The notes beneath the pieces are model-generated. The model did no database searches. It worked only from the letters and a program-made list of their open reading frames with translations, and was not told the origin of the DNA. Of a DNA stretch of 64,000 nt, positions 2,782 to 35,730 are shown in pieces. The translations under genes and the position numbers were made by a program. The stretch spans positions 1,335-65,334 of the forward strand of contig JAPLCX010000085.1 of the NCBI GenBank assembly GCA_026392035.1. The letters run 5' to 3'. How positions within the stretch are numbered: position 1 is the first letter of the stretch; the number at the start of each line of letters is the position of its first letter. The stretch comes from Candidatus Auribacterota bacterium (GTDB taxonomy: Bacteria; Auribacterota; Tritonobacteria; UBA1439).

Positions 2782-3510
2782 CTACCGCGTGAGGACCGCG
2801 CACACGGCGGAGGCGCACGCGATCAGGAAACTCCCTGCGATGTCCGCCGGGGAGAGAAGGAACTTCTCAGGCTTGAACTTCTTGGCGCAGTGGTTTGCCA
2901 CCGGTAGACGGATGAGCATGACAGCCGGTACAAGCGCGAGATATGCATACCCCCCCACCATGAGCGCGAAGAGAATGCCGCGCTCAACAACTCCATAATA
3001 TTTTGAGAAGCCATCAGGCATGAGTGCGTATTCGGGAGCATGCAGAAGTGTGCGCTTGGCAGAATCGAGCAGGTAGACCCCACTGAACGTGGCCACGAGA
3101 AAAAATATGGAGGTGGTGATCACCCCCGCGCGATCGAGCCTCTGAATGATGCCCCCCTGCAGCTCGGGCAGCCCCGGGAGTGGGGTCATGAATACGGCTG
3201 CGATCACCGCGATGTGCATCGCCTGATCCAGGAGGAACGTCCCGAGATCATTCCGGGGGCCCAGGCGGTCGAGGAAGGCCACTTTAACATAATCCACCAT
3301 CAGATGAGCGCCCGCGACCACGGAGATGAAGCGCCAGAATGACCAAGAGCCGATGAGCGGGTAACCCGCGAGCGCCATTGTACCCAGGCAGATGAGGGCG
3401 TGTGGAATCTGTCCCGCGAGGTATCTTCTCTTCAACCGGTAGATATGCGCGGACTGCAGGGGAAAATCGGCGACCAGGTGCGCCAGGATCAGCAATTTAA
3501 AAAGCAGCAT
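2782..3510 (-). CDS. DUF3307-like membrane protein
   Basis: LAHLVADFPLQ, H..H..VD and F.LDQ.MH motifs; start moved to ATG 3510. Confidence 0.7.
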   Translation of the reverse strand: MLLFKLLILAHLVADFPLQSAHIYRLKRRYLAGQIPHALICLGTMALAGYPLIGSWSFWRFISVVAGAHLMVDYVKVAFLDRLGPRNDLGTFLLDQAMHIAVIAAVFMTPLPGLPELQGGIIQRLDRAGVITTSIFFLVATFSGVYLLDSAKRTLLHAPEYALMPDGFSKYYGVVERGILFALMVGGYAYLALVPAVMLIRLPVANHCAKKFKPEKFLLSPADIAGSFLIACASAVCAVLTR

Positions 3511-3519: not shown

Positions 3520-3713
3520 GTAACTACTCAGGTAGTCAGAAGCCAGGAGCCAGAATCCAGAATGGATCGCGAATAAGCTTCCAGTAGCTTGCTGACCTCT
3601 TCGAGTAACTGCATTAACCCTGAATTCCGGCTCCTGAGCAGTAATGTCGCCGCTGGCGTCCTCATTCCAACTCCTGGCTCCTGACTCCTGAATTCTGGCT
3701 CCTGAGCAGTTAC
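3520..3713. mobile_element. Small TIR-bounded element holding a deleted four-helix-bundle gene remnant
   Basis: Ends GTAACTACTCAGG / CCTGAGCAGTTAC (13-bp IR, 1 mismatch); inverted heptamer arrays (CAGGAGC/CAGAATC); encodes MRTPAAT...LLEEVSKLLEAYSRSIL. Confidence 0.6.
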
Positions 3714-3715: not shown

Positions 3716-5167
3716 TTACATCTGCTCCAGGGCGAGGAGGCCGATGAACTCATCCGCGCTGATCGCGGACGGCGAGGCCATGTAGTGCGTTCCCAGGACG
3801 TCCCCGGCAACCGGGGTGATCGCCCCGCGCACCGCGCTGCCGGTGATCTGGAGCACCACGTCGATGGAACCGTCAGAGTAGTACGTCTTGGAAACCTCTT
3901 CTGCCCCCTGCACCACTCCCTTGACCGCGATATCGACCTGATCGTTCTGAACGGCGAAGTTTTTGAGCGTCGTCGAGGAGGTTACCACGGCGCCGTATAT
4001 CTTCTCGGCGAGCCGCCGGTACGCGTCCACCGTCGCCGCCCGCTCGGTGGTGGCGCGAATGAAGGCCCCGAAGGCGCCGGCGTATTCCGTGAGGGATACG
4101 GGGGTCACATTTTTCCAGACCAGCGCGATATCGCGATTGATTATTTTGCGCACTCGCTCGAGCGGGTACTCCAGCCGCAACGTCGCGCGGCGCTCGTTCT
4201 TCTGGTATTCCGATTTTATCACGTGGGCGTTGCCGGTGCTGTCGAGCAGCGCCTCACAGATTTTTGGATCCTTATTCATGAGGTCGCCGACCGTCTCCTC
4301 ACCCGAAAGCCTGATCATTTCGAGCTTATCGATGATCCCCTTCTGAGCCCGGTAGCGCGCCTCACCCATCGCCCAGCGCTCGGCTTCCCGGGGGTTTTCG
4401 ATCTCCGCGGGAGCGGTCACGCTCGCCTCGGCGCCGATGACGATGTTCCCGAGGCTCGGCTTCGGGCTCTTGAGGCGTTCCAGCAATCCCTGCGCATCCT
4501 TGAGCGGCACCTTCGGGTCGCCGAGCCTCTTGATCAGCAGCTCCTTTGGGGGCAGGCCGGTTCCCTTTGCCCTCAGCAGCGCCGCCGTCCACGGCGCCAC
4601 GGTGGTGCGCTGTTCGGGACTCACGTTGACATATTTCTGGGGCTCGCCGACCGCCATGACGTTCACCGTGCCGCTGGAGACTGCCACGCGCGTCGCCTGG
4701 GTTTCCCCCTCCGCACCGAACGAGAACGCGGTGCCGCGCACGGCGGCCACCGCGACAGGCGACTTCAAACTCAGGCGCGTCCCCGCGGGGAGCTTGTCCA
4801 GCTTGGCGATGATGTCCCCCTTCAGCAGGCCGAGGTCGGTCAATTTCATCACCGAGCCGTCGGGATCCTTCGACTCCTTGGAGAGCTGCTCGATCTTCAG
4901 GAGCGAGTTTTCCCTGAGCCGGAACTTGTTCGGCGGATCCAGCTGCATATCCGCATAGCAGTTGTTGGATGTCCTGAGCGAATCCGTCGCGACGAGCGAT
5001 GTCCCCACTCTCGCGGCCGACCATGCAGTCGACGGCGGCTTCAGGCACTCGGCATGGCGGTACACCTTGATGAGGGAGACCGACGGGCCCGTTTCTGAAC
5101 CTCCGTAGAGCGCGAAGGGGATGCACACCCCGAGTCCGATAACGAGCGCACGAGTAAGGGTGTTCAC
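3716..5167 (-). CDS. Exported FecR-domain protein with C-terminal LPP20/FlgT-N-like repeats
   Basis: Signal-like N-terminus, GTG start with GGAGG RBS, FecR core (KFRLRENSLLKI...SPVAVAAVRGTAF), and two A...A...A helical/beta repeats. Confidence 0.7.
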   Translation of the reverse strand: MNTLTRALVIGLGVCIPFALYGGSETGPSVSLIKVYRHAECLKPPSTAWSAARVGTSLVATDSLRTSNNCYADMQLDPPNKFRLRENSLLKIEQLSKESKDPDGSVMKLTDLGLLKGDIIAKLDKLPAGTRLSLKSPVAVAAVRGTAFSFGAEGETQATRVAVSSGTVNVMAVGEPQKYVNVSPEQRTTVAPWTAALLRAKGTGLPPKELLIKRLGDPKVPLKDAQGLLERLKSPKPSLGNIVIGAEASVTAPAEIENPREAERWAMGEARYRAQKGIIDKLEMIRLSGEETVGDLMNKDPKICEALLDSTGNAHVIKSEYQKNERRATLRLEYPLERVRKIINRDIALVWKNVTPVSLTEYAGAFGAFIRATTERAATVDAYRRLAEKIYGAVVTSSTTLKNFAVQNDQVDIAVKGVVQGAEEVSKTYYSDGSIDVVLQITGSAVRGAITPVAGDVLGTHYMASPSAISADEFIGLLALEQM

Positions 5168-10056: not shown

Positions 10057-10252
10057 CTGCCTACGTCAGGCAAGTCCCAAACTTGCCCGCCAGAGGCGGG
10101 TGTCAAATGTCAAATAAATTCTAAATCCCAAATTCCAAAATTCAAACCATTTGCCTGCCTGCCGGCAGGCATGGATTTTGTCATTTGTCATTTTTTAGGA
10201 CGCTGCCCCTCTCCCTTCCCCCCTTTCGCAAAGGGGGGTTAGGGGGGGATTT
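10057..10252. repeat. Composite palindrome/heptamer repeat; near-copy at 41616-41816
   Basis: About 115 bp shared with 41616-41727: CCTGCC..GGCAGG, CCCGCCAGAGGCGGG, AAATCCC units, then a CCCCCTTT..AAAGGGGG hairpin. Confidence 0.8.
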
Positions 10253-14617: not shown

Positions 14618-14656
14618 GTCACACCCAATCCAAGAGGCACACCCTGAATACTAACT
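14618..14656. repeat. Decayed arm(s) of the RAYT-associated repeat
   Basis: GTCACACCC at 14618 and GCACACCCTGAATACTAACT at 14637-14656, matching the 46416/47508 inverted repeats. Confidence 0.75.
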
Positions 14657-14707
14657 CCGCCATCTCACCAATCTCGGAATCAGTATTCGGGCGTTGGCCC
14701 TTTTCAT

Positions 14708-14984: not shown

Positions 14985-15320
14985 TCACATTAGGTCTCCC
15001 AACGGCCCCAGGTTTATGTTGAGCTCCTCATCCTTGAGCCCAAAAATCCCTTTGAGCTCCTTTATCTTGTTCTCCAACTTCATCAGGGTCTCGCCAACCT
15101 GCTCAATCTGTTCGTCCGTCAGGCTGCCCCCTTCTATCCGCCGCAGCGCCTGTTTTTCAAGCAGCTTTCTGATCAATTCTACCAGCGTGAGCACCAGCTT
15201 CGCCAATCCCTTCTCCACGTTCTTTGGGTTCGCGTCAATTTTTTTGGGAAGGGCGTCCTGTATTTTATCAAGCTCGTTCATAAACAACTCAGGTGAATCA
15301 GTCTCGACTTTGCGCTTCAT
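14985..15320 (-). CDS. gvpK: Gas vesicle protein GvpK
   Basis: GLAKLVLTLVELIRKLLEKQALRR ... LNINLGPLG. Confidence 0.93.
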   Translation of the reverse strand: MKRKVETDSPELFMNELDKIQDALPKKIDANPKNVEKGLAKLVLTLVELIRKLLEKQALRRIEGGSLTDEQIEQVGETLMKLENKIKELKGIFGLKDEELNINLGPLGDLM

Positions 15321-15414
15321 GCAATACCTCACGTTAGCTTGCGCTAACTTAAATCCCAAATCCCAAAGTTATTGAAATTCCGAGGCTGCCAGTTAATCCC
15401 CCAGCCCAATTTTA

Positions 15415-16152
15415 TTAAAAGGGCGGATGAGGGGGGATTTTCACTCTCACAAAATTATACGGAGGCCAAGGGCCGCTGAATAAATATTTAAAATCACTGT
15501 GTTCTTTTTTAAAATGCTCAAACGCTTCCCGGAAATCTCCCGCCGCTCCTTTTTTTACAAGATAATTCGCGTCAAGAAGCAGATCGCAGCTTTTAAGCTT
15601 CTCCACCTTCTTTTCTGAAATGCAGTCTTTTAACACACTCTCCAGGGCAAGGATATGTTGTTCAGCTTCCTTTTCAAATGCCTTCTCTATTTCATGTTCC
15701 GCCAGCTTCTCCTTCATGTACCTTTTTGCCGGAGTGTCTCCCGACGCGCCTGACCCGGCCGTTGAACCCTTATGCGCGTGCGCGATGTTTTCTTTTATCA
15801 CTTCCCCCGGCCAGATAACCCTGACGCCGAATTCCACCTTGTCCCTGAGCCTGTTGATATTTTCCTTGAATTCACCGTAGTGTTTTTTAAGAATGCACAC
15901 AGCATCATCCCTTGTATTGAAGACCGTGTTGAATCTCATGGGCAGGACGACATAATTACCCATTTCTCTTTCCACCACCTCTTCGTGCCTGAGGACATCC
16001 GTTTTACCTGTATCCGTTATTCCCCTCCCTATTTCGCTCGAAATTAAACCGATATCGCGATGGGGAATATTATAGATAATCGCGCCATCCAGACCCTTTA
16101 TCCGGCCTTTGAGCTTATCACCGGAATCTATCACGCAATAGGTGTAGATCAC
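15415..16152 (-). CDS. GvpL/GvpF family protein
   Basis: YTYCVI, HEEVVE, VLPMRFNT, SGPWPPYNF; GTG start 16152. Confidence 0.9.
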   Translation of the reverse strand: MIYTYCVIDSGDKLKGRIKGLDGAIIYNIPHRDIGLISSEIGRGITDTGKTDVLRHEEVVEREMGNYVVLPMRFNTVFNTRDDAVCILKKHYGEFKENINRLRDKVEFGVRVIWPGEVIKENIAHAHKGSTAGSGASGDTPAKRYMKEKLAEHEIEKAFEKEAEQHILALESVLKDCISEKKVEKLKSCDLLLDANYLVKKGAAGDFREAFEHFKKEHSDFKYLFSGPWPPYNFVRVKIPPHPPF

Positions 16153-16155
16153 TTT

Positions 16156-16345
16156 AAATCCCAAATCCCAAACTCCAAATCCCAAATAAATCCCAAATCC
16201 CAAAATTTAATTGTCATTTGGCTTTTGTCATTCATCTGTCATTTGTCATTCTGCTGATTTGTCATTTGGCCTTTGTCATTCATTTGTCATTTGCCTGCCT
16301 GCCGGCAGGCAGGGATTTTTGTCATTTATTTGTCATTTGTCATTT
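16156..16345. repeat. AAATCCC heptamer array followed by TGTCATT array with a nested CCTGCCGGCAGG palindrome
   Basis: Visible 7-bp periodicity on both arms. Confidence 0.8.
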
Positions 16346-16346
16346 C

Positions 16347-16565
16347 CTATGTCGGCTCTTCCTGTCCCCCCGCAAACGGCGTCCCTCGCAGCTTCTCCAT
16401 GGTCTCGACCGAACTCAGCAACACCTTCAATCCCAGGTAAACAAGGTCCACATCAGCCACCGATATAACTATATCGCCGCTGATCACCACGCCCTTGTTC
16501 AACACCCGGTCGAGAACCTCGAGGAGCGTGACGTCCCTTGATTTTATTACGACTTTATCTACCAT
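16347..16565 (-). CDS. Minor GvpA-family protein (GvpJ/S/M-like)
   Basis: LLEVLDRVLNKGVVISGDIVISVADVDLVYLGLKVLLSSVET. Confidence 0.88.
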   Translation of the reverse strand: MVDKVVIKSRDVTLLEVLDRVLNKGVVISGDIVISVADVDLVYLGLKVLLSSVETMEKLRGTPFAGGQEEPT

Positions 16566-17379
16566 GCTGTTTCTCCGACAACGCGCAGAAGTTATACGGC
16601 GGCCATGGCCCGGTACAGTCAAATGAAAGACCGGAAGAAGAGAACCTATCTTTGAAATCATTTGTCGCATTGATAAAACCGCCCAGCTCATTCTTGTCCA
16701 CGAGGAAGGCGGCATTCAGGATCATATCATCGTTCCTCTCGGTAACTTCCCGCGGAAGCAGCTTGTTTATGCGCGCGCGCATGCTCAATGCGCACAGCCT
16801 GTCATACATCTCCTGACCATACTCGTTCAGCTTTTTATCAACCAGAACATCGAGCAACTCATCCCTTTTCTTTTTCAACAGAAAGCCCTTCCCAGCCGAG
16901 GAAGCGCCGATCTCTTTATCCATTTGCGCGACCTCTTTATCCTGTGTCCCGAGAAATGCCCGTAATTTACCGATATCGCAATAGAGCTTCAGCCCCCACT
17001 CCTCTTTTCCGTCGAGTTCGCTCAACAAATCCTTCAGTTCTTCCTCGTATTTCTCCAACCAGCCCCGGAGGTTCGCATCAGTTTTAAAAACAGTTCCCAA
17101 TTTGAACGGGACTACCGCGCCGGCTTCCATAACTCCCTCGATTACCTTGTTATGAATATTCGCCTTTACTTTGACCCACTCGAAATCAGAGAGATGCTTT
17201 TTCAGCCCCTCTTCTCCAAACTCCTCCCCTGTCACCGCGCTCACCACGGCGTAAAGACCGTGATGACACACCACGACCGGGGCCTTCGCGATCCCCGCCA
17301 CATGGCCTGGCGCAGGCTCCCTGTCGGTCACACAATACAGGTAGATAAGACCTTTCTCGCCACTTTCCGCATCGCTCAT
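16555..17379 (-). CDS. GvpL/GvpF family protein
   Basis: YLYCV, H..VI, VVPFKLGT, TGPWPPYNF. Confidence 0.9.
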   Translation of the reverse strand: MSDAESGEKGLIYLYCVTDREPAPGHVAGIAKAPVVVCHHGLYAVVSAVTGEEFGEEGLKKHLSDFEWVKVKANIHNKVIEGVMEAGAVVPFKLGTVFKTDANLRGWLEKYEEELKDLLSELDGKEEWGLKLYCDIGKLRAFLGTQDKEVAQMDKEIGASSAGKGFLLKKKRDELLDVLVDKKLNEYGQEMYDRLCALSMRARINKLLPREVTERNDDMILNAAFLVDKNELGGFINATNDFKDRFSSSGLSFDCTGPWPPYNFCALSEKQHGR

Positions 17380-17639
17380 TCGGATGACTCTTCCTCCTCT
17401 TTACGTCCGTACGACTGCACTTCCAGGTCGGCGCTGAGCTTGACCTTATAAATGTTCCTGTCCTGCACCTTGACCGGGAGCCCGATGGATTTCATAAAGG
17501 CGCTCTCCTCATACACCTCCGCCTCGGTCTCCCACCCGTCGCTCACCCGGGCAACCTTAATGACCTTGGCTTCTTTCGCGCTGAGCGCTTTCTTTAAAAA
17601 TTCGCTGACCGCTTTCCCCGCTTCCTGAATGGTTGCCAT
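17376..17639 (-). CDS. gvpO: Gas vesicle protein GvpO (copy 2)
   Basis: VIKVARVSDGWETEAEVYEE...YKVKL; paralogue of 27454-27711. Confidence 0.75.
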   Translation of the reverse strand: MATIQEAGKAVSEFLKKALSAKEAKVIKVARVSDGWETEAEVYEESAFMKSIGLPVKVQDRNIYKVKLSADLEVQSYGRKEEEESSE

Positions 17640-17663
17640 GACCGCACCTCCTCTCCATAAGGG

Positions 17664-17822
17664 AAATCCCAAATCCCAAACCCCAAATCCCAAAATTCAA
17701 ACCATTTGTCATTTTTTAGGACGTTGCCCCCTCCCCAAATCCCCCTCTGTCCCCCTTTTTCAAAGGGGGAGGAAATCCATCCCTCATTTCCCCCCTTTGT
17801 AAAGGGGGGTTGGGGGGGATTT
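17664..17822. repeat. Heptamer array plus CCCCCTTT..AAAGGGGG hairpins
   Basis: aaatcccaaatcccaaac..., then two hairpins of the G/C-tract type. Confidence 0.75.
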
Positions 17823-18045
17823 ACTTCCCTCTCGCCGCGTCCAATCGTTCCAGCAACTCCTTCTCCTGTCTGTTGTACTCCTCCTCATTTATCTCGTCCA
17901 GCTCGAACCTGAGCTGCAACTCCATCAGTTTCTCCTTTATCCTCCCCTCATCGGAGAACTCCTTCTGCGCGACCTCGTCGATCTTCCTCCCGAGCCAGAC
18001 AATCATCTTGAGAGGAGAGAGAAGTATATCGTCGATAAGGAACAT
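17821..18045 (-). CDS. gvpG: Gas vesicle protein GvpG
   Basis: DDILL.P...I.W....I...A..E..DE..I...L.ELQ...E..EI.EEEY...E.ELL.RL. Confidence 0.9.
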   Translation of the reverse strand: MFLIDDILLSPLKMIVWLGRKIDEVAQKEFSDEGRIKEKLMELQLRFELDEINEEEYNRQEKELLERLDAARGK

Positions 18046-18121
18046 ACCAAGACCACCTTGTTAATGACAAATGACAAATGCCAAAATCCAAATAAATGAC
18101 AAATGACAAAATCTAACTAGC

Positions 18122-18514
18122 TCAACCACTTTTTAGAGTCTTATTTATAATGCTGCTCAGGATAAGCAATAATTCTTCTGCCTCACCTAACTGCCAATCA
18201 AGTTCTCCTCTATCCTCCGGCTCCCTCACCAAATCCACCTTTTTTATCAAGCGCAGCCAGTGTCTTGACTCTCGCGCCTCCCTCCTGGCAATTCCCATTT
18301 TGTTCACAAAATCTTTCCTCGTAAGAGCTCCATCCGCTTCTTCCATATTCGCGCCGATCGAACCGCTTGCCCTGATTACCTGCTTCCCGTACTCTATCAA
18401 AGCCTGGCTTTTGTCCAACCTGCTTATCAGCCTCGCAACCCTCGCTGCAAACTCCAGGGCTCTATCATAAATGTCAAATTTTCTTCCTATTGTCATTTGT
18501 TTATCATTTGTCAT
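18122..18514 (-). CDS. Four-helix-bundle protein (TIGR02436/IVS-like) flanked by inverted heptamer arrays
   Basis: QVIRASGSIGANMEEA, F..K..IARREARES..WL; real start may be ATG 18496. Confidence 0.88.
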   Translation of the reverse strand: MTNDKQMTIGRKFDIYDRALEFAARVARLISRLDKSQALIEYGKQVIRASGSIGANMEEADGALTRKDFVNKMGIARREARESRHWLRLIKKVDLVREPEDRGELDWQLGEAEELLLILSSIINKTLKSG

Positions 18515-18576
18515 TCTAGTAGTTCGTCTCTTCCTGTGTCTCGACTCTTCTCCTGTTTGTCATTTGAAATTTGTCA

Positions 18577-19332
18577 TTAGTACTTGTCTGTCTTTATCAC
18601 CAGATTCACGAAATTGAACGGCGGGAGCGTGCCCACATATTTAAACTTAACAGCCTCGCCATATTTTTCCACAAGCCCTTCGACCGCCCTATCAAACTCC
18701 TCTTCGCGTTTTTCCTCAACCAGGAAGGCCGCATTCAGGATCATCCGCTCCCCATACGTGGCATTGGTCTTGGTCTCCAGCGCGACGGGTGTGAGAAATT
18801 CCATTATCTTCTCGCGATATGCCTCCCGCTCCTTCCCGAGCGCCTCCTCAACCATCCTGCCTATTTCCATGCGCTGATAATGGGTTTTATCCGCCGGCAG
18901 CGTCGCGATCTTCTCCTTGGTCCGCCGTATATGCTCATATTTTTCCAGAATGGACGGATAAATAAATTCTTCCTTGAACACCGCCTTGAGACCGAGCTCC
19001 TTTTTCCCCTCCATCTGCCGCAACATCTGCGCGAATCGGTCGTGCTCCTTCTCCAGTATCCTCCGCACCTTGTCCTCGCTCTCCGCGATGGTGCAGAACC
19101 TGACGGGCAGCACCGTGTGATGCTTCATTACCTCTTCGATCGCGCGCTCATGTGCGATCGTGTTTTCCCGCGATATCCTGTATTCCTTGACCGGGGAATT
19201 GCTGACCACGGCGGCGACGTCATTGACGCCGAAGCTCCGCACCTCATCCCCCCTGCCGCCGATCCCGACAGGGCCGAAGGCATCGGGCTCTCCAGCCGCG
19301 ATTATACAATAGATATACTTACCCTCTTTCAC
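18577..19332 (-). CDS. GvpL/GvpF family protein
   Basis: GKYIYCII, AHERAIE, VLPVRFCT, GTLPPFNF. Confidence 0.92.
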   Translation of the reverse strand: MKEGKYIYCIIAAGEPDAFGPVGIGGRGDEVRSFGVNDVAAVVSNSPVKEYRISRENTIAHERAIEEVMKHHTVLPVRFCTIAESEDKVRRILEKEHDRFAQMLRQMEGKKELGLKAVFKEEFIYPSILEKYEHIRRTKEKIATLPADKTHYQRMEIGRMVEEALGKEREAYREKIMEFLTPVALETKTNATYGERMILNAAFLVEEKREEEFDRAVEGLVEKYGEAVKFKYVGTLPPFNFVNLVIKTDKY

Positions 19333-19433
19333 CCCGCCCCCATTTATTTGTTATTTGTCATTCGGATTTTGTCATTTATTTGACATTTGCCCACCTGCCG
19401 GCAGGCAGGGATTTTGACATTTGTCATTGAATT

Positions 19434-20204
19434 CTATTTTTCCCATTCTTCCTGGTAGATGACGATATTCACAAAGTTGAACACCGGCAGCGGCCCGGCG
19501 TACATGAACGTCATTCTATCTTTGTATTTCCTGCCCAGGTCATCCATGATATTGTCAAATTCCTTCTCCCGCCCCTTGTCCACCAGGAAGGCGGCATTGA
19601 TGAACATCCTGTCGTCAGTGGTATTATTGAGCTTATGGTCGTAAGCAGTTCGCCGCAGCGCGTCCACCACCCTCTCCGCCTCCTGCCGCTTCTTTTTGGC
19701 CAGCGCCTGCTCAACCATCTTGCCCAGCTCGACCCGCTCCTCAATACCCCCATTGCCCTTCGATTTCCGCAGGGTCTCCTTGAGTTGCTTGATCTCCTTG
19801 TTCTTTTCGCCGATCTCCCGGTATATGACATCCATATCCTTCCACAGCCCCTTGACGCCAAGCTCGACCTTGTGATCCATATCCCTTAAGGCATGTTTGA
19901 ACTCCCTGTATCTTCTATCGAGCAGGTTGCGTATCTCATCGGCGTCCTCCGCGACGGTGCCGAAGCGCACCGGGAGCACGCCGTCGAACTCCTTCATCAC
20001 TTCCTCGATCACCTTCTCGTGCGCGAGCATATTGTCGCGATTGACCACAAACCGCGTCATGGGATGATTGCTCACCACCATGCTGAGGTTCTCATAGCCG
20101 ATCGTGAGAATCTCGTCGCCTCTCCCGCCTATGCCGATAGCTCCGAAATTTCTCTCCTGCTTTGTCCCGATGATGCAATAGATGTATTTGCCTTCTTTTT
20201 CCAT
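19434..20204 (-). CDS. GvpL/GvpF family protein
   Basis: GKYIYCII, AHEKVIE, VLPVRFGT, GPLPVFNF. Confidence 0.92.
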   Translation of the reverse strand: MEKEGKYIYCIIGTKQERNFGAIGIGGRGDEILTIGYENLSMVVSNHPMTRFVVNRDNMLAHEKVIEEVMKEFDGVLPVRFGTVAEDADEIRNLLDRRYREFKHALRDMDHKVELGVKGLWKDMDVIYREIGEKNKEIKQLKETLRKSKGNGGIEERVELGKMVEQALAKKKRQEAERVVDALRRTAYDHKLNNTTDDRMFINAAFLVDKGREKEFDNIMDDLGRKYKDRMTFMYAGPLPVFNFVNIVIYQEEWEK

Positions 20205-20205: not shown

Positions 20206-21249
20206 TCACTCCCTCAGTCTGACGAGGATCGCGCTTCTCCGTATATCGCTCGCCTTAAATGACAGGTTCTCACTGTCCCCTCCCTGCTCCGACGCCCGGG
20301 CGTACTCTTCGAGAATCTTCCACGCTCTGGTGAGATCATCAAACACCTTCTCCATATCGGTTCCGTCAGGATTAGTGTCCGGATGCGATGAGAACGCTAA
20401 TTTCTGACGAATCTTCTTGATATCCGCCCGTGTGGCCGTGTCGCCCAGACTAAAAATCCGCCTCGCCCAATTGACCTCGTCGCTCCCCAGTTTTTTCACC
20501 TCAAGCGTGAAGAAACTGTACGGGGGGAGCGGTCCGATGCGCCGAAAATTCAGCTTCTCCTCAAACCGGGCATTGAGCTTATCCACCTTCGCATCGAATA
20601 TCTCTCGATTCTCACGCGAGACGAGGAACGCGCTGTTCATCACCATCGTGTCATCCATGAGCTCGTGGTCCCTGAACCCACAGCTCACCGCTGTAAGCTC
20701 ATGGTGAATAGCCGCCGCGCACGCTTTTCTCTGTTCATCCAGCGCCTTTTTAACAATAAGCCCTACCGTCATCTGATCCTGGGGAGTCACCCCGTTTGAA
20801 CTCGCGAGGACCTTTGCCTTGATATCCTGAACCTCTTTCCTCCCCCCGGTCTCTTTAAGCAACGCGTTAAAATCACTCCAGGTCACCGCGACGTCAATCT
20901 CCACCTTATCGGCGATTTTCTTAAATACCTCCCGCGCCAACTCATACCCCCGGGCGAGAACATCCTGCGCTTCGCTCATGCTCTCCGCATAGGTCCCCAC
21001 TCTCATCGGGATAACCGCGAATCGCCGCATCACGCTCTCGAGCACCTGCTGATGATGTATTAGTCGCCGCGCGACTTCGTCTTTTATCAGCGCGTTGTAG
21101 TCGTACAGCTCGGAGTTGCTCACCACCGCAGCGATATCCATATGGGGGATGGTGTACACCTGTTCCCCTCCTTCAATCCCGGGCTGCTCGAAGTAAAGCT
21201 CCTTATCAGATTCAATAATCCCATAGATATATTTGCCCTCCCGCTTCAT
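20206..21249 (-). CDS. GvpL/GvpF protein fused to a C-terminal J-domain
   Basis: GvpF core ending GPLPPYSF, then IKK..QKLAFSSHPDTNP...F..L..AW.IL with an intact HPD. Confidence 0.85.
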   Translation of the reverse strand: MKREGKYIYGIIESDKELYFEQPGIEGGEQVYTIPHMDIAAVVSNSELYDYNALIKDEVARRLIHHQQVLESVMRRFAVIPMRVGTYAESMSEAQDVLARGYELAREVFKKIADKVEIDVAVTWSDFNALLKETGGRKEVQDIKAKVLASSNGVTPQDQMTVGLIVKKALDEQRKACAAAIHHELTAVSCGFRDHELMDDTMVMNSAFLVSRENREIFDAKVDKLNARFEEKLNFRRIGPLPPYSFFTLEVKKLGSDEVNWARRIFSLGDTATRADIKKIRQKLAFSSHPDTNPDGTDMEKVFDDLTRAWKILEEYARASEQGGDSENLSFKASDIRRSAILVRLRE

Positions 21250-21260
21250 GATACCATTCC

Positions 21261-23423
21261 TCAAGCCTTGTGGCCGGCCGGCGACCGCGAATTCCGCGCG
21301 CTCTCGACCAACTTCATCGCTTCTTCGAAATGCCTCTTCTCAATGGTGGGCGAGTCCTTCCCCTTCGGTTTTCGTTCGATAAACTCCCGTATGGCAATCA
21401 TCGCCGCCTTGCGGCATATAAGCTCGATATCAGACCCCGACTTGCCCCCGGTGTCCCTGGCCAGCTTCCTTATATCAATGTCCGGGGCGAGGGGTTTGTT
21501 TTTGACATGGATCTTGAATATCTTTCCCCGCGCCGCTTCGTCGGGGATCGGCAGCTCGAGGAGCAGATCAAATCTGCCGCTCCTGAGCAGCGCCGGGTCA
21601 ACAAGGTCCAGCCTGTTGGTCGCCCCCAGCACCAGCACGCCCTTGAGCTCCTCTATCCCGTCCATTTCCGTCAGAAACTGGCTTATCACCCGCTCCGTCA
21701 CATGGGCGTCAGTGGAACTCGACCCCCGGAGGGGCACAATGCTGTCGATCTCGTCAAAGAAAAGGATGGTGGGAGACGCCTGTTTCGCCTTCTTGAAGAT
21801 CTCCCGGATGCCCCGCTCGCTCTCCCCGACGTATTTTGATATGAGGGAGGGCCCTTTCACCGAGATGAAGTTCACGCCGCTCTCGTTTGCCACCGCCTTC
21901 GCGAGGAGGGTTTTCCCCGTCCCCGGGGCTCCGTACAGGAGGATTCCCTTCGGAGGCGAGGTGTTTGTCTTTTTAAATATCTCCGAGTACTTCAACGGCC
22001 ACTCAACCGCCTCTTTCAACTCCTCCTTGATAGTATCCAACCCGCCCACATCCTCCCATGTGACATCCGGCACCTCCACGAACACCTCTCGTATGGCCGA
22101 TGGTTCGACCTCCTTCATCGCTTCCAGGAAATCATCCATCGTCACCTCGAGCTTCATGAGCGTCTCGTAGGGGATATCGGCCATTTCAAAGTCTATCTTC
22201 GGGAGGATCTTCCGCAACGCCGACATCGCCGCTTCCCGCGCAAGCGCCTCGAGATCGGCGCCCACGAAACCGTGGGTGATCCCCGCGAGTTTCTCCACGC
22301 TCACGTCCTGCGCCAGGGGCATGCCCCTCGTGTGGATATGAAGTATCTCAAGCCTGCCGTTTTTGTCCGGGATGGGAATGGCTATCTCCCGGTCGAAGCG
22401 CCCCGGCCGCCGCAGCGCCGGATCCACTATATTGGGGACGTTGGTCGCGGCCATGACGACCACATGCCCCCGTGACTCCAATCCGTCCATGAGCGCCAGG
22501 AGCTGGGCCACCACCCGTCGCTCAACCTGTTTCTCAGCCCCCATATCTTCTCTCTTGGGAGCGATTGATTCGATCTCATCAATGAATATGATTGCGGGGG
22601 CATGCGCCTTGGCCTCCTCAAAGAGGGACCGGATGCGCCCTTCCGATTCCCCGTAAAATTTTCCCATGCACTCAGGCCCGCTCATGCTGGTAAAGTACGC
22701 GTCCGTCTCGTGCGCCACCGCGCGCGCGATCAATGTCTTGCCGCACCCCGGCGGCCCGTGGAGGAACACGCCCTTGGGGGCGTCGATGCCGAGCCGCTCG
22801 AATACCTCGGGATAGCGCAGCGGCAGCTCCACCATCTCCCTGATGCGCTGGACCTGCGTGCCGAGACCGCCGATATCCTCGTACGAGACCTTCGCGGGCC
22901 CCTTCTCCGGCGCCTCCTTGGTCTTGATCCGTATCATCGTGGCGGTGCTCAACACCACCACGCCATCGGGACTCGTGTCGAGCACCTTGAAATCGCACGA
23001 TCTCGTGCCGAAGAGCACCGCCCGTATCCGGTCGCCCACCATCACCGGAAGCCCGTCAATGAGCGACCCGATATACTTGCTGTCCTTCTCCCGGTCCGCC
23101 AGGCCCGACATGGTCAACGGGGAAAGCGTCACGCTCCGCGCGGGTTTCGATTCCACCTTATGTATCTTTACCCGGTCATCGAGCCCCACCTGCGCGTTCT
23201 CGCGTAAGATCCCGTCCATCTGAATGATCTTCATGCCGCGATCCGGGGCGTAACAGGGCATCGCCTTTGCCGGCGTCTTCCGTTTCCCTTCAACCTCGAT
23301 GATCTCCCCCACTTCAACGCCGAGCTTCTTCATGTCATCGGGATCTATTCTCGCGATAGACCTCCCGACATCCTTGGATAAAGCCTCTTTCACTTTTAGC
23401 ATCACATAACCTCCGTCATTCAC
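21261..23423 (-). CDS. CDC48/p97/VAT-family AAA+ ATPase
   Basis: Double-psi N domain; D1 [22 protein letters not shown]; D2 [18 protein letters not shown]. Confidence 0.93.
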
Positions 23424-23428: not shown

Positions 23429-23595
23429 TAAGTTAGCTCGCTAACTTAAATCCCAAATGACAAAGCACAAATGTCAAATGAATGACAAATACCAAATGAG
23501 AGATGATAAATACCAAAGCATAAATGACAAAAATTTAAGGTTTTGTCATTGGGATTTTGTCATTTCTTTGTCATTTGAAATTTGACATTTGTCAT
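23429..23595. repeat. Gene-less inverted heptamer-array element with terminal palindrome
   Basis: TAAGTTAGC-TC-GCTAACTTA, AAATGAC-type array, then TGTCATT-type array. Confidence 0.8.
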
Positions 23596-23649
23596 TACTT
23601 ACAATCCGTGCTTTTCTGAAATTCCCTGCCTGCCGTCAGGCAGGTTTCT

Positions 23650-24588
23650 CTACGCGCCAAACAGCAAATGCCTGAAATTATCCAACGACTCGATTCCCCT
23701 CACCTCCACGGGCTGCAACGGCACCAGGGTAATCTCAAATGCGCCGAACTTTTCCTTTATCATTTTGATGTATCTTTCCTGCCCCTTCCTCCGCTCCCTG
23801 CAGAAATCGCAGTCGCTCGACCTCACCACATTATTGACCACCATCTGTCTTACGTTGATTCCCGCCACGCGCAGGCTGTTCACCAGCCGTTCCGTTTCCG
23901 CGATCGCCATCTCCTCCGGAATGGTCACCACGATGAATTGGCAGCCTTGACCATCGCGGAGCAAACCCTCGATCCGCTTTACCACCTTCTTCATTTCGAC
24001 GAGGAACTCATCTGCCCTGTCAGGCTTCGCCCGCCCCGAAAAGGCTTCAACCACTCGATGATACTTCCACCGCATCTTCGCGACCACCTTGATCCAGTCA
24101 TCGAGAATGCCGGGCAGCGTCAACAACCTCAAGGCGTGTCCGGTGGGCGCGGTGTCAACGATATACTTGTCGAATTTCCCCTCCTCCACAAGGTCGAGGA
24201 TCGTTTTGAACCCCATCACCTCGTCTATACCCGGAATAGAGAGCGCGAACACGGAATCTATGTCGGCCTTGTCAAGATAGGTCGAGCTGTCGAGAATCCA
24301 TCGTATCTCATCCCCGTACTCCGCCTTGAACCGGCAGAGCGCCTTGTCCGCGCTTACTTCAATCGCGCTCAGGTTCTGAACACCGTCAATCCCGGTTACG
24401 GCATCCCCGATGCTCTGGCCGAAACAGTCGGAAAGGGAATGGGCGGGATCGGTGGAAATAAGCAATGTCTTGTATTGCCCGGCCAAATAAAAACCTGTGC
24501 TGGATGCACAGGTCGTTTTTCCCACCCCGCCCTTTCCGCCGAATAAAATCAGCTTTAGCGCGTCATTATTTAATCCTGTGAGTGGCAT
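23650..24588 (-). CDS. ArsA/GET3-family ATPase
   Basis: GKGGVGKTT, STDPAHSL, DTAPTGH. Confidence 0.93.
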   Translation of the reverse strand: MPLTGLNNDALKLILFGGKGGVGKTTCASSTGFYLAGQYKTLLISTDPAHSLSDCFGQSIGDAVTGIDGVQNLSAIEVSADKALCRFKAEYGDEIRWILDSSTYLDKADIDSVFALSIPGIDEVMGFKTILDLVEEGKFDKYIVDTAPTGHALRLLTLPGILDDWIKVVAKMRWKYHRVVEAFSGRAKPDRADEFLVEMKKVVKRIEGLLRDGQGCQFIVVTIPEEMAIAETERLVNSLRVAGINVRQMVVNNVVRSSDCDFCRERRKGQERYIKMIKEKFGAFEITLVPLQPVEVRGIESLDNFRHLLFGA

Positions 24589-25118
24589 TTCATCACTTTG
24601 ATTTCCAGCATGCCGTTATTGTATTTTGAGCGGAGCGTATCCGCTTTAACCTTTGCCGGGAGCAGGATCTCCTTGCGGTATTTCCTTTCGCCGGATTTGG
24701 CTGAAATATCCAGGATATCCCCTTTCAAATCAACCTTGATATCCTTTTCATTCACCCCCGGCATTTCGGCGTACACCCGGATCTCTTCCTTCTCGTCAAA
24801 CACGTCGGTGATCGGTTCCCGTTCCTCCTCAACCTTCGGCCCCTGGGGAGTTTTTTTGATCTTGTGACCGAACGGCTCCACCTTGAACGGCTTTCCTCCC
24901 GTGGCAGTCCGCACGGAAAAACCGAACACCCCCTTCATGCCTTCCTTGAGCTGGCTCAGATCTATCTCGCCTTCTTTTTTGATCTCACCGCCTGATTCTT
25001 TCAGGGATTCCGCCAGGTCCACCAATTTTTCAAGCCCTTTGAACAACCCCCCCAGGCTGAATTGCCCCATACCGATGTCAAAATCCGCCCCTTCCTTTTT
25101 CTTCTTTTCCTTTGCCAT
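24570..25118 (-). CDS. Hsp20/alpha-crystallin protein (GvpH-like), copy 1
   Basis: EPITDVFDE, AEMPGV, YNNGMLEI. Confidence 0.88.
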   Translation of the reverse strand: MAKEKKKKEGADFDIGMGQFSLGGLFKGLEKLVDLAESLKESGGEIKKEGEIDLSQLKEGMKGVFGFSVRTATGGKPFKVEPFGHKIKKTPQGPKVEEEREPITDVFDEKEEIRVYAEMPGVNEKDIKVDLKGDILDISAKSGERKYRKEILLPAKVKADTLRSKYNNGMLEIKVMKCHSQD

Positions 25119-25559: not shown

Positions 25560-25955
25560 ATGGCCAAACAATCCCTGCAAAAGATAATTCTTAAAGAAGG
25601 GATAATCTCTATTTATGTTGTGCTCAAAGGCCATATTACTTCGCGTACTATAAAAATGGCTCTGGATACAGGAGCCACTTATACTATGATACCCATAGAA
25701 ATCGCCAGGGATATAGGTTACGATCCCACTCTTACCAAAAGACGAATTGAAATTTCTACTGCTAATGGATTGATTTTCGTACCTCTGATTACAGTCCTGG
25801 AAATAAGTTTTATGGGGCTCACCCTGAAAAGTATCGATGTAATCTGTCATAACTTACCTTCTGAAAGTCCGGTGGAAGGCCTGCTCGGTCTCAACTTTTT
25901 AATCCACCTGCCTGCATTTATTGAGTTTTATCAGAAAATCCATTCTCATATCTAA
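25560..25955 (+). CDS. Retropepsin-like (clan AA) aspartyl protease
   Basis: ALDTGATYT, TANG, GLLGLNFL; ATG 25560. Confidence 0.88.
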   Translation: MAKQSLQKIILKEGIISIYVVLKGHITSRTIKMALDTGATYTMIPIEIARDIGYDPTLTKRRIEISTANGLIFVPLITVLEISFMGLTLKSIDVICHNLPSESPVEGLLGLNFLIHLPAFIEFYQKIHSHI

Positions 25956-25980
25956 AACCATCCGTCTGTTTCCAGCCTCA

Positions 25981-26058
25981 GGGTCACACCCTGAATACTA
26001 ACTATGAATGCTCGTCCAAAACCTGCTATGGTCTAAGTCAGTATTCAGGGTGTGACCC
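25981..26058. mobile_element. 78-bp REPIN/MITE-like element, copy 1
   Basis: 23-bp inverted arms (GGGTCACACCCTGAATACTAACT, 1 mismatch in the right arm) around a 32-bp spacer. Confidence 0.85.
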
Positions 26059-26071
26059 CGAATGTGATCAT

Positions 26072-26650
26072 TTAATCCTGTGAGTGGCATTTCATCACTT
26101 TGATTTCCAGCATGCCGTTATTGTATTTTGAGCGAAGCGTATCCGCTTTAACCTTTGCCGGAAGCAGGATCTCCTTGCGGTATTTCCTTTCGCCTGATTT
26201 GGCTGAAATATCCAGGATATCCCCTTTCAAATCAACCTTGATATCCTTTTCATTCACCCCCGGCATTTCGGCATACACCCGGATCTCTTCCTTCTCGTCA
26301 AACACGTCGGTGATCGGTTCGCGTTCCTCCTCGACCCTCGGCCCCTGGGGAGTTTTTTTGATCTTGTGGCCAAACGGCTCAACAGAGACCGGCCTGCCTC
26401 CGAGCGCGGTTTTTACAGAGAAACCAAAAACCCCCTTCATCCCTTCCTTCAGATGACTCAGGTCTATCTCGCCCTCTTTTTTGATTTCGCCGCCTGATTC
26501 TTTCAGGGCTTCCGCCAGGTCCACCAATTTCTCAAGCCCTTTGAACAACCCCCCCAGGCTGAATTGCCCCATACCGATGTCAAAATCCGCCCCTTCCTTT
26601 TTTCCGCCATGGGCGGCTCCGCCTCCGGCGGGCTTCTTCCCCTTTATCAT
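26072..26650 (-). CDS. Hsp20/alpha-crystallin protein (GvpH-like), copy 2
   Basis: Nearly identical to 24570-25118 apart from the N-terminus. Confidence 0.88.
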   Translation of the reverse strand: MIKGKKPAGGGAAHGGKKEGADFDIGMGQFSLGGLFKGLEKLVDLAEALKESGGEIKKEGEIDLSHLKEGMKGVFGFSVKTALGGRPVSVEPFGHKIKKTPQGPRVEEEREPITDVFDEKEEIRVYAEMPGVNEKDIKVDLKGDILDISAKSGERKYRKEILLPAKVKADTLRSKYNNGMLEIKVMKCHSQD

Positions 26651-26675
26651 GGCTCTCTCCTCCTCTCTGGCCTCA

Positions 26676-26753
26676 GGGTCACACCCTGAATACTAACTAC
26701 GAATGCTCATCCAAAACCTGTTATGATCTAAGTTAGTATTTAGGGTGTGACCC
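26676..26753. mobile_element. 78-bp REPIN/MITE-like element, copy 2
   Basis: Same arms; spacer differs from copy 1 at 4 of 32 positions. Confidence 0.85.
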
Positions 26754-26756
26754 CAC

Positions 26757-30390: not shown

Positions 30391-30414
30391 TTTCCACCTC
30401 CCCTCACCCTGGCC

Positions 30415-30795
30415 TTCCCCCCATCGTCTCCCCCTTTGGAAAAGGGGGTTAGGGGGGATTTTCCCCCTTCCGCCAATCCCCGGCTAAATCCCCCCTGCCC
30501 CCCTTTGCTAAAGGGGGGGGAATTGGAGGGCCTTCGCCACCTTCATTGCCTTCTCCCCCCGTTCCCCCTTTTGAAAAAGGGGGCTATGGGCACGGCCCCC
30601 TCTTTGGAAGATTTGCTCTCACCCTGTTCCCCCCTTTGAAAAGGGAACTATGAGGGCGGATCCCTCTTTGGCAGATCTGCTTTCACCCCGTTCCCCCCTT
30701 TGTTAAAGGGGGGGAGAATTGGAGGGCCTTCGCCACCTTCATTGCCTTCTCCCCTCGTTCCCCCCTTTGGAAAAGGGGGGTTAGGGGGGATTTGA
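30415..30795. repeat. Cluster of CCCCCTTT-N2-4-AAAGGGGG hairpins with an internal duplication
   Basis: About eight hairpins; GGAGGGCCTTCGCCACCTTCATTGCCTTCTCCCC appears twice (~30523 and ~30721). Confidence 0.85.
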
Positions 30796-34315: not shown

Positions 34316-34399
34316 GTTAGCTCGCTTTGGCTCGCTAATTAAAACCCTAAATCCTAAACCCGAAACTCTAAACAAATCCAAAACCCAAAAACCCAAACA
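34316..34399. repeat. GTTAGCTCGCT palindrome variant plus AAACCCT/AAATCC heptamer-like array
   Basis: Resembles the element ends at 15333 and 23429. Confidence 0.6.
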
Positions 34400-34430
34400 A
34401 AGACGCATGGACGATGAAAAAATTCCAAAG

Positions 34431-35419: not shown

Positions 35420-35523
35420 GTTAATTCACCTCCTTCCCTTATTGGATTTTTGCTGCAAACTCCTCGATGCCACTCACTCAAATCCCCCCTGCCCCCCTTT
35501 TCTAAAGGGGGAAAGAGGGGGAT

Positions 35524-35730
35524 TTACGCTGCCGACGCGGTCAGGCCGATTGCTTCGGCATACTTCAGGTACGTCTCGACTGATGCCGCCACGATTCTGG
35601 CTTCAACAGCGAGCAGCTCAATACCCACCAACGACACTCTCACCCAGGCATCAACCACGATGCCCTTGTCCAGTATCCGGTCGATAACCTCAACCAGGCT
35701 GGACGATCCGATCGTCTTTTCCACTGCCAT
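35524..35730 (-). CDS. gvpA: Major gas vesicle protein GvpA (copy 1)
   Basis: Same as copy 2 except I46/A48; GGAGGTGA RBS before ATG 35730. Confidence 0.98.

Follow-up and report, generated by a model that had tools for sequence, protein, structure and literature searches.

Why should a gene for a four-helix-bundle protein lie between two gas-vesicle genes, enclosed by tandem heptamers that face one another in opposite orientation? The locus is found in a 64,000-nucleotide (nt) stretch of contig JAPLCX010000085.1 from a Candidatus Auribacterota bacterium (hereafter the window, meaning the whole stretch that was analyzed), within an operon of gas-vesicle (gvp) genes transcribed from the minus strand. 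We consider it probable that positions 18046-18576 are a discrete insertion module of the intervening-sequence (IVS) type, in which an S23p/TIGR02436 gene stands between inverted arrays of degenerate heptamers, here in a messenger RNA (mRNA) operon at the gvpF-gvpG junction.

The insert at the gvpF-gvpG junction

A sequence-only reading of the window had described inverted AAATGAC/TGTCATT arrays around a four-helix-bundle gene between gvpF and gvpG, and the coordinates of the arrays and the identity of the flanking gvp genes agree with that description. On the gene strand, (AATGACA)n stands upstream of the gene and the complementary (TGTCATT)n downstream. The insert and its two neighbors are laid out as follows.

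18577-19332, minus strand: gvpF/L gene directly upstream of the insert
18046-18576, minus strand: insertion module between gvpF and gvpG (probable)
18556-18578, minus strand: outer 5' arm, AATGACAAATTTCAAATGACAAA on the gene strand, overlapping the gvpF stop codon (18577-18579)
18517-18555, minus strand: 39-nt non-repetitive spacer inside the 5' arm
18491-18516, minus strand: inner 5' arm (GAATGACAAATGATAAACAAATGACA), containing the two candidate start codons and predicted to pair with the 3' arm
18122-18514, minus strand: four-helix-bundle gene (TIGR02436/PF05635, S23p/Avd-like), from profile match and fold model
18063-18110, minus strand: 3' arm, (TTTGTCA / TTTGGAT / TTTGGCA)n on the gene strand, about seven units
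17821-18045, minus strand: gvpG, directly downstream of the insert

Read along the gene strand, AATGACAAATTTCAAATGACAAA overlies the gvpF stop codon and is followed by the unique spacer, by GAATGACAAATGATAAACAAATGACA, by the gene with its stop codon and by TTTGTCATTTGTCATTTATTTGGATTTTGGCATTTGTCATTTGTCATT, after which come the gvpG ribosome-binding site AACAAGGTGG and start codon. The 3' arm is the reverse complement of the 5' arms and stops just short of the gvpG ribosome-binding site. On the plus strand the same arms read as AATGACA-type units (18063-18110) and TGTCATT-type units (18491-18516 and 18556-18578). The window contains 41 copies of TGTCATT where 7.1 would be expected, and none of 100 shuffles reached 41.

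The open reading frame (ORF) at 18122-18514 matches TIGR02436, a profile titled 'four helix bundle protein' (E 5.6e-23; 81.2 bits against a cut-off of 24), and PF05635, '23S rRNA-intervening sequence protein' (E 2.1e-18; 66.9 bits against a cut-off of 33.8). Its other matches were to two related NCBIfam subfamilies, both far under their cut-offs, and a weak sub-threshold one to Pfam COG4_N. Among Pfam and NCBIfam profiles and in PADLOC, no nuclease, recombinase or transposase domain was matched, and the PADLOC defense models gave zero matches. An AlphaFold2 monomer model built from 37 homologues (pLDDT 91.8) has four helices, at residues 15-32, 37-61, 66-92 and 99-128. Its best Foldseek match is 2RLD (E 1e-6; template-modeling (TM) score 0.70 by query and 0.84 by target), a structure of five chains. 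This and 2GSC (E 5.5e-5) are S23p-family proteins, and both rank above Avd, whose structures 4DWL and 8UB7 match the model at TM 0.67-0.69 by query and 0.76-0.80 by target. The profile score and the match to 4DWL uphold the earlier assignment to a TIGR02436-type bundle resembling Avd. Both 2GSC and Avd have been described as pentamers (PMC4990558; bioRxiv 10.1101/2023.10.23.563531).

The true start of the protein is likely the second ATG, at 18496, giving 124 amino acids (aa), because residues 1-12 of the longer frame are encoded by the array and disordered in the model and because an orthologue of 93% identity begins at that methionine. A coding role for the arrays themselves was ruled out: these same residues are missing from the orthologue, and the 7-nt period changes the reading frame with each unit. 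Exactly one four-helix-bundle gene lies within the 64-kb window. Its nearest homologues are named Candidatus Omnitrophota, and the top match in a species-representative collection has 71% identity. The protein is under purifying selection, with a ratio of nonsynonymous to synonymous substitution rates (dN/dS) of 0.16 between the window gene and its orthologue in locus L006.

We compared the junction with 80 metagenomic loci that carry relatives of the window GvpF (53-68% identity), 75 of which also contain gvpG. In 74 of these 75 operons the gvpF stop and the gvpG start are at most 5 nt apart or overlap, against a gap of 532 nt in the window; the sole exception has a 99-nt spacer bearing a palindrome. 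Because gvpF and gvpG abut in all the others, the unit of about 530 bp is an insertion relative to related operons. The sequence-only reading would have fallen with invariant orthologous sites; these vary, with 74 of 75 empty and independent insertions elsewhere. Such insertions occupy another junction in other gvp operons, between two gvpF paralogues. In locus L097 the four-helix-bundle gene found there is intact, belongs to another subfamily and has CTAAGTT/AACTTAG-type arms, and L096 and L094 hold the same type of element with the arms kept and the ORF broken by nested small repeats. At this junction inverted arrays without a gene extend over about 430 nt in L121, with (GGAAGAC)n facing (GTCTTC-type)n, and L111 has shorter gene-less arrays.

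The gene-less arrays of about 430 nt deserve a separate remark. In L120 (497-924) and L121 (2032-2459), one gvpF-gvpF junction is filled by (GGAAGAC/AGGAGAC)n and then (CTTCAGA/CTCCCGA)n, so arrays can grow far past their usual 40-70 nt.

Judged from the sequences of its relatives, the insertion at gvpF-gvpG is old. It is common to relatives at 82-93% protein identity: gvpG also lies directly downstream of the insert in L006-L008 (93%-identical protein) and L009 (82%), and gvpF lies directly upstream of the four-helix-bundle gene in L006-L008, the L009 contig starting 46 nt before the gene. Relative to L009, dN is 0.14 for the four-helix-bundle protein and 0.32 for the neighboring GvpG. Recent mobility of the window copy is not supported, given this shared position and the purifying selection. 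Between close relatives the arrays differ by indels and unit substitutions. The spacer of the 5' arm (about 39-40 nt) is missing in L006-L008, and is therefore an indel between close relatives; the 3' arm shows a G/T change, and the array that precedes the gvpO-like gene has been replaced.

Array-flanked genes across phyla, and their copies

The unit of array, gene and inverted array surrounds the TIGR02436/PF05635 family across bacterial and archaeal phyla. The sample behind this statement came from a profile scan of one genome per species and comprises 80 loci, with flank statistics computed on 76 genes. The loci span Omnitrophota, Margulisiibacteriota, Saganbacteria/WOR-1, Planctomycetota, NC10, Chloroflexota and groups of the Candidate Phyla Radiation (CPR), together with Bacteroidota, Ignavibacteriota, Gammaproteobacteria and archaea. 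By eye, an A/C-rich array precedes nearly every gene and the reverse complement of that array follows it, in a unit that varies by lineage. Upstream and downstream arms pair, for instance, as AATGACA with TGTCATT, AATGTCC-AATTTCC with GGAAATT-GGACATT, AATTAAA with TTTAATT, TACCAATAA with TTATTGGTA, CAACTTCAAAC with GTTTGAAGTTG, and AATGTAGAATTTAGA with TCTAAATTCTACATT.

Period 7 is kept while the sequence of the unit changes, and the two arms co-vary. In 80-nt flanks, identity at lag 7 was 0.45 upstream and 0.44 downstream and at lag 14 it was 0.39 and 0.41, compared with 0.29 at all lags in control flanks (261 genes of the same loci). Lag 7 was the best lag upstream of 57 of the 76 genes, downstream of 55 of the 76, and in 34 of the 261 controls. 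The predicted duplex between the two flanks had a median of -41.7 kcal/mol (z -3.1), against -26.9 kcal/mol (z -0.05) in controls, and z fell below -3 for 55% of genes and 4% of controls (Mann-Whitney p 5e-14). For the arms of the window element the values are -47.1 kcal/mol and z -3.2. The gene's own downstream flank was the best partner of its upstream flank among all 76 in 16 loci, and was in the top 10% in 37. Own flanks pair best, and the arms therefore co-vary beyond what common composition would give. The density of period-7 arrays is 2.23 per kb up to 150 nt from the genes and 0.195 per kb in the rest of the 80 loci. This enrichment of about 11-fold around four-helix-bundle genes is what the sequence-only reading had staked its proposal on.

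The units sit close to their neighbors, with median gaps of 67 and 65 nt, and the upstream neighbor is co-oriented in 60 of 68 cases (background 76%). We found no rRNA in the 20 closest homologue loci, and no Rfam family matched there or in the window at gathering thresholds. Close homologues occupy unrelated gene contexts, including a position between cas2 and cas1 and positions beside transposon genes. A tblastn search of plasmids returned 31 records, mostly from Nostoc, Anabaena, Dolichospermum, Planktothrix and other cyanobacteria. Lag 7 was best on both flanks in 11 of the 12 cyanobacterial plasmid loci examined, and inverted heptamer arms are plain in most, for instance (AATTCGT)4 facing (ACGAATT)4, (GTCGGAG)n facing (CTCCGAC)n and (AATTCGC)4 facing (GCGAATT)4. 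Other arrays include (CACTGGT)13 and, in Planktothrix, (CCCCAAT)4.

Three of these loci touch on CRISPR adaptation. In Anabaena cylindrica pANACY.01 (L171) and Nostoc sp. TCL26-01 (L174) the four-helix-bundle gene lies between cas2 and cas1 on the opposite strand, and in Pseudanabaena galeata (L181) it shares the strand of cas1 and stands upstream of it. For CRISPR adaptation modules, '23S rRNA IVP' is one of the novel associates that a large-scale screen listed (PMC10910872). This association of the family may reflect selfish insertion, not function.

The arrays also leave traces in databases. Many entries of the protein family begin 'MTNDKIQMTNES...' or 'MTNDKIQMTN...', which is translated array, and many close homologues are on contigs of 0.5-2.5 kb. 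The short contigs and array-derived N-termini suggest that the repeats break assemblies and mislead gene callers, which routinely extend four-helix-bundle ORFs into the arrays and so produce spurious N-termini.

Whole units have been duplicated at unrelated sites within genomes, and gene-less inverted arrays can arise by internal deletion. In one Omnitrophota metagenome-assembled genome, two copies lie at unrelated loci (L032 and L033), and their homology begins with the first unit of the 5' arm and stops after the last of the 3' arm. Locus L011, in another such genome, holds a full element (about 3979-4445) and, 1 kb upstream, an internally deleted copy (2993-3098) with unrelated flanks. In the deleted copy the 5' arm and the first nine codons (MTNNKKFDI) are fused to the last three (GD and stop) and the 3' arm, with 100% identity to the full copy over 55 + 51 nt. 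The deletion is bounded by two copies of the 12-nt direct repeat AAATTTGATATT. This short copy is a derivative like a miniature inverted-repeat transposable element (MITE), caught near its origin. Since it keeps identical arms, gene-less arrays can be MITE-like derivatives. Similar short inverted-array hairpins, in the unit type of the genome concerned, occur in L018, L023, L024, L025, L032 and L041.

The earlier idea of a gene-bearing element with gene-less derivatives thus holds in relatives (L011 and L032/L033), and in the window a gene-less hairpin at 23.5 kb has the end sequence of the element. The reading of the insert as a mobile element is partly supported. The earlier proposals that the element is autonomous and spreads without a classical transposase find no support; a transposase acting in trans may take part, and the window encodes one of the IS200-like Y1 type (46433-47449).

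Gene-less arrays in the window and the weighing of alternatives

The window holds many arrays besides those of the insert. A period-7 scan found 16 array segments, against 0.4 in shuffles (a 17th match is a G homopolymer). Coding sequence makes up about 75% of the window, yet every one of the 16 segments is in non-coding DNA. They are concentrated in the gvp cluster, at 15-24 kb. Apart from gvpF and gvpG beside the insert, the genes of the operon are, in order of transcription:

23650-24588, minus strand: ArsA-like ATPase, first in transcription order
21261-23423, minus strand: CDC48-like AAA ATPase
20206-21264, minus strand: GvpF/L-DnaJ
19434-20204, minus strand: GvpF/L
17376-17639, minus strand: GvpO-like gene
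16555-17379, minus strand: GvpF/L
16347-16715, minus strand: GvpA/J
15415-16155, minus strand: GvpF/L
14985-15341, minus strand: GvpK

The gene-less and one-armed arrays, with the palindromes that accompany them, are:

23443-23607, minus strand: gene-less inverted heptamer arrays forming a hairpin (minimum free energy -49.6 kcal/mol, z -4.5)
23431-23446: GTTAGCGAGCTAAC palindrome adjoining that hairpin
19343-19428, minus strand: arrays and CCTGCCGGCAGG palindrome that take up the 101-nt spacer separating two gvpF/L paralogues
17653-17713, minus strand: short array, AATGACAAATGG then (TTTGGGA)n on the gene strand, directly upstream of the gvpO-like ribosome-binding site
16149-16360, minus strand: gene-less arrays enclosing a CCTGCCGGCAGG palindrome, between gvpA/J and gvpF/L
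15342-15371, minus strand: short (TTTGGGA)2 array adjoining a GTTAGCGCAAGCTAAC palindrome, upstream of gvpK
10099-10193, minus strand: composite module of array and palindrome, 92% identical over 84 nt to 41615-41698
41659-41699, minus strand: array part of the second copy of this composite module
34336-34401, minus strand: one-armed array of AAACCCT/AAATCCT-type units (plus-strand reading), adjoining a GTTAGC..GCTAA palindrome
50878-50934, no strand assigned: one-armed (CCAAATC)3.7 array between convergent genes
52341-52393, minus strand: degenerate one-armed array of AAAATCC-type units
3527-3708, minus strand: second heptamer family, inverted CAGGAGC/CAGAATT ... GCTCCTG arrays around about 80 nt
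38267-38330: partial copy of the second family, 35 kb away

Most of these sites had been noticed from the sequence alone. Of the gene-less arrays then listed, those at 15333, 16156, 17664, 19345, 23429, 34316, 50896 and 52346 are confirmed and the one at 56760 is weak; the list lacked both copies of the composite module (10099-10193 and 41659-41699) and the second family (array segments at 3527-3708 and 38267-38314). Palindromes of the GTTAGC..GCTAAC type do adjoin three arrays, as had been said, at 15333, 23431 and 34316.

The hairpin at 23443-23607 has a terminal TTTGTCATTTGAAATTTG(T/A)CATT in common with the gene-bearing element (repeat family D12). On the gene strand the arrays at 16149-16360 consist of about 130 nt of AAATGAC-type units and then about 50 nt of TTTGGGA-type units, and the 5' part of the array at 17653-17713 is unlike that of the close relative L006. 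One-armed arrays of the window, for instance (GGGATTT)n on the transcribed strand, are of the type of a 3' arm, and homologue loci combine AAATCCC and AATGAC units inside single arms. The second family at 3527-3708 has no intact gene between its arms. Its mini-ORF, MRTPAAT...LLEEVSKLLEAYSRSIL / MRTPAAT...LLEEVSKLLEAYSRSILDSGSWLL, resembles the fused N- and C-termini of a different four-helix-bundle subfamily, a hint only, as blastp-short gave nothing significant (best E 0.75). A scan for promoter and terminator consensus sequences at 15-24 kb gave weak matches in the arms and nothing decisive. We infer that the gene-less and one-armed arrays are relatives or remnants of gene-bearing modules; some may be due to slippage alone.

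Several other small repeats share these intergenic spaces. Two families of G+C-rich palindromes, CCCCCTTTnnAAAGGGGG and CCTGCC(T)GCCGGCAGGCAGG, are interleaved with heptamer arrays as composite intergenic modules. They lie at 10205-10251, 17736-17821, 30412-30793, 35475-35524, 40541-40611 and 41535-41815, and also at 16290-16313, 19393-19412, 23625-23644 and 41588-41650; some are tandemly multiplied, for instance with a 64-nt period at 30489-30780. A palindromic element GTCATTGCGAGGAGC...GACGAAGCAATC...CCTCGCAATGAC (38390-38490) lies beside the truncated array of the second family, and an element of this type also interrupts the decayed four-helix-bundle element of L094 (about 2350-2440).

For the insert itself, the predicted fold of 18040-18600 (minus strand) has 57 long-range pairs between the arms, with a minimum free energy of -140.7 kcal/mol. 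The predicted inner helix covers the start codons of the gene, and in the predicted outermost helix the region of the gvpF stop (18588-18573) is paired with that of the gvpG start (18053-18041). In 77 flank pairs of the homologue loci, the arm duplex is stabler on the sense than on the antisense strand in 48 loci versus 28 (Wilcoxon p 0.003), a G-U signature that is expected if selection acts on the transcript.

A number of observations weigh against the reading of the insert as such a module. A/C-rich and G/T-rich arms pair partly through composition alone (the shuffles preserved composition). Many one-armed arrays of the window and of other gvp operons lack both a nearby gene and a partner arm, so arrays can persist, and perhaps arise, independently of the gene. 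We found no consistent target-site duplication or terminal motif at the boundaries in L011 and L032/L033, three junction pairs in which the array ends are ill-defined; a mechanistic signature of transposition is therefore missing. The insert is old and syntenic in the lineage of the window, and could thus be domesticated and not selfish. The RNA stem is a prediction with a modest z for the whole element (-2.85), the advantage of the sense strand is small, averaging about 2.3 kcal/mol, and binding of the protein to the arrays is suggested purely by analogy with Avd.

Four other explanations can be set against the insertion module. One might suppose that the arrays are generic host repeats born of replication slippage, like the short tandemly repeated repetitive (STRR) sequences, and kept for transcript stability, translational coupling or spacing, and that the gene lands in or recombines into hairpins already there. 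The arrays would then be targets and not parts of an element. One-armed gene-less arrays are indeed common in the window and other gvp operons, where (GTAAATC)2-9, varying in copy number at one junction, and (CATCCTG)3 also occur; several unrelated heptamer families are present within one genome, and the cyanobacterial literature sees STRR hairpins as host features (PMC2670836). We nevertheless think this unlikely, in view of the 11-fold enrichment of arrays beside the genes and of the complementary arms on both sides of most genes in every phylum sampled. Moreover, the homology between the paralogues L032 and L033 spans the arms and ends exactly at their outer edges, and the deleted copy of L011 carries both arms, 100% identical, to a different site. 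Even targeting of hairpin loops would leave gene and arms as a unit that was later copied.

The module could instead be a domesticated regulator of gas vesicles, whose protein would act as an RNA chaperone or processing factor on array hairpins, setting the stoichiometry of Gvp proteins, and would not be selfish. This is plausible for the lineage of the window, where the same junction is kept at 93% and 82% protein identity with a dN/dS of 0.16, where the protein is more conserved than GvpG (dN 0.14 against 0.32) and where arrays cluster in the gvp region at 15-24 kb. As a general account we rate it somewhat lower than that of host repeats, since 74 of 75 related gvp operons lack the module, close homologues are found in unrelated contexts (cas2/cas1, transposon genes) and other gvp operons contain decayed copies.

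Improbable in our judgment is a third possibility, that the arrays are DNA hairpins mobilized in trans by an HUH/Y1 transposase of the IS200/RAYT type (RAYT, REP-associated tyrosine transposase), as repetitive extragenic palindromic (REP) elements are, with the gene as a passenger. The window does encode a protein with a Y1_Tnp domain (46433-47449), inverted-repeat hairpins are natural substrates of such enzymes, and the insertions are discrete with no obvious target-site duplication, as with IS200/IS605. That Y1 gene, however, is flanked by distinct repeats of its own (GGGTCACACCCTGAATACTAAC), which are separately dispersed, and the association of gene and arrays crosses phyla with no Y1 gene seen beside the elements. 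The greater stability of the arms on the sense strand speaks for RNA, and the arms vary in sequence by lineage at a fixed period of 7, unlike the recognition of a fixed motif by a transposase. The notion of a diversity-generating retroelement, with the gene as its Avd and the repeats as a portion of its template or spacer RNA, has the Avd-like fold (4DWL, 8UB7) and a common Pfam family in its favor, and was rejected as highly improbable given that no reverse-transcriptase domain was found among the 31 window ORFs scanned and no template/variable repeat pair in the window, that the immediate neighbors on both sides are gvp genes, and that in sequence the protein is much nearer to 2RLD and 2GSC, which are stand-alone S23p proteins, than to Avd.

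The Y1 gene is of interest in itself. The ORF at 46433-47449 (minus strand) encodes 338 aa with an IS200-like Y1 transposase domain (PF01797, E 7e-11) and is flanked by inverted GGGTCACACCCTGAATACTAAC. Repeats of the GGGTCACACCCTGAATACTAAC type lie at 46416-46442, 47485-47512, 25975-26059, 26670-26754, 14634-14660 and 25814-25840, and 85-nt inverted-repeat elements made from GGGTCACACCCTGAATACTAAC are dispersed in the window. Together they look like a REP/RAYT (REPtron) system, separate from the heptamer arrays.

Three further features of the window may be recorded here. A 300-nt direct repeat of 97% identity (24562-24861 and 26064-26363) covers the 3' parts of the Hsp20-family genes 24570-25118 and 26072-26650 and is a recent duplication beside the gvp cluster. 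A perfect run of 21 G (43648-43668) is found in the short spacer between the PAS/histidine-kinase genes 42469-43575 and 43619-45769, and runs partly into the called ORF 43619-45769 at its 3' end. Within the 689-aa ORF 403-2472 (plus strand), seven 102-nt (34-aa) repeats in tandem at 1632-2430 have the look of tetratricopeptide repeats and are unrelated to the insert.

A predicted transcript stem and comparison with known systems

How could an insertion module persist between two genes that normally abut? In the operon transcript the arms would pair into a long imperfect stem with the gene looped out, and the gvpF stop and gvpG start would meet at its base. The stem is probably a substrate of RNase III, an insulator of the host transcript, or both, as in rRNA IVSs. 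An insert between co-translated genes or in rRNA would be tolerated because the stem would restore proximity and probably offer an RNase III site. By analogy with Avd, the protein probably binds the periodic imperfect helix of its own arms and of gene-less arrays, and this binding would regulate the protein itself, its processing or its propagation. A helix of degenerate 7-nt repeats would offer periodic irregularities that suit a multimer.

The role of the S23p protein, the ORFs in 23S IVSs and the identity of STRR have been unexplained for decades, and the data suggest that they are facets of one thing: a gene in co-varying inverted arrays of 7-nt period that inserts cleanly between genes and leaves gene-less hairpins. 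We put forward the strongest form of this idea tentatively, as a possibility that may well prove wrong. S23p genes and their heptamer arms would make up one element class of bacteria and archaea, with ORF-bearing rRNA IVSs as a special case and STRR hairpins and empty arrays as non-autonomous or decayed derivatives. The pentamer would read the 7-nt helix with one protomer per repeat register, and would thereby control processing, stability and possibly copying that needs no transposase.

The closest precedents are the S23p-bearing intervening sequences of 23S rRNA and the STRR hairpins of cyanobacteria, neither of which the sequence-only reading had named. IVSs that encode S23p occur in the 23S rRNA of Leptospira, Coxiella burnetii and others, at helix 25 or 45. 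In the IVS of Coxiella burnetii, which contains an S23p ORF, the inverted repeats form a 28-bp terminal stem that is cut by RNase III; two or three tandem GACAGAT heptamers, in a number that depends on the strain, stand just before the start codon; and its authors recall an older proposal that the element is or was mobile (PMC4990558). Like the window element, the 23S rRNA IVS has a PF05635/TIGR02436 ORF in the loop of a terminal inverted-repeat stem, which is predicted here. The Coxiella unit GACAGAT may be compared with the window unit, which in rotation is GACAAAT, and both are tandem before the start codon. The window element differs in lying between protein-coding genes of an operon and not in rRNA (it has no Rfam match), and its gene is subject to purifying selection, in contrast to the Coxiella ORF, which is in decay and probably not translated.

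STRR are 7-bp tandem repeats that form hairpins between co-transcribed genes, such as hupS and hupL; their function is unknown, and roles in transcript stability and translational coupling have been proposed (PMC2670836). The window arrays are likewise tandem 7-bp intergenic repeats, capable of forming hairpins, between co-transcribed genes. Cyanobacterial four-helix-bundle genes are themselves flanked by STRR-like arrays, including CCCCAAT units. The STRR consensus sequences are reportedly CCCCA(A/G)T, TT(G/T)GTCA and CAACAGT (Mazel et al. 1990), and the window unit TTTGTCA fits what we take to be the STRR2 consensus, TT(G/T)GTCA. STRR were described as gene-less repeats of heterocystous cyanobacteria; in the window, no cyanobacterial markers accompany the gvp genes. 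The gene-less and one-armed arrays of the window, taken as relatives or decayed derivatives of modules, would be the equivalent of these cyanobacterial hairpins.

Avd shares its four-helix-bundle fold with the window protein by homology and is a positively charged, RNA-binding pentamer. All five of its protomers bind an 11-bp imperfect RNA stem-loop, with the same residues contacting different flipped-out bases (bioRxiv 10.1101/2023.10.23.563531). Avd systems have a reverse transcriptase and template/variable repeats, neither of which was found here (31 window ORFs scanned for the former), and the window protein is closer to stand-alone S23p. With MITEs and REPtrons the elements described here have in common terminal inverted repeats, dispersed copies, internally deleted gene-less derivatives and intergenic sites. 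Unlike in those systems, the protein has no transposase, nuclease or recombinase domain, and the ends are degenerate tandem heptamers and not a unique inverted repeat.

In the literature, our coverage of which is incomplete so that an earlier description is possible, we found neither a link between STRR and a protein-coding element nor a description of the association of TIGR02436/PF05635 genes with arrays. New to us, therefore, are PF05635/TIGR02436 genes in co-varying inverted arrays of 7-nt period, in every phylum sampled, as discrete units between ordinary protein-coding genes and with gene-less deletion derivatives. The ingredients are known separately: S23p ORFs in rRNA IVSs, the heptamers of Coxiella, the hairpins of STRR and the RNA-binding pentamer of Avd.

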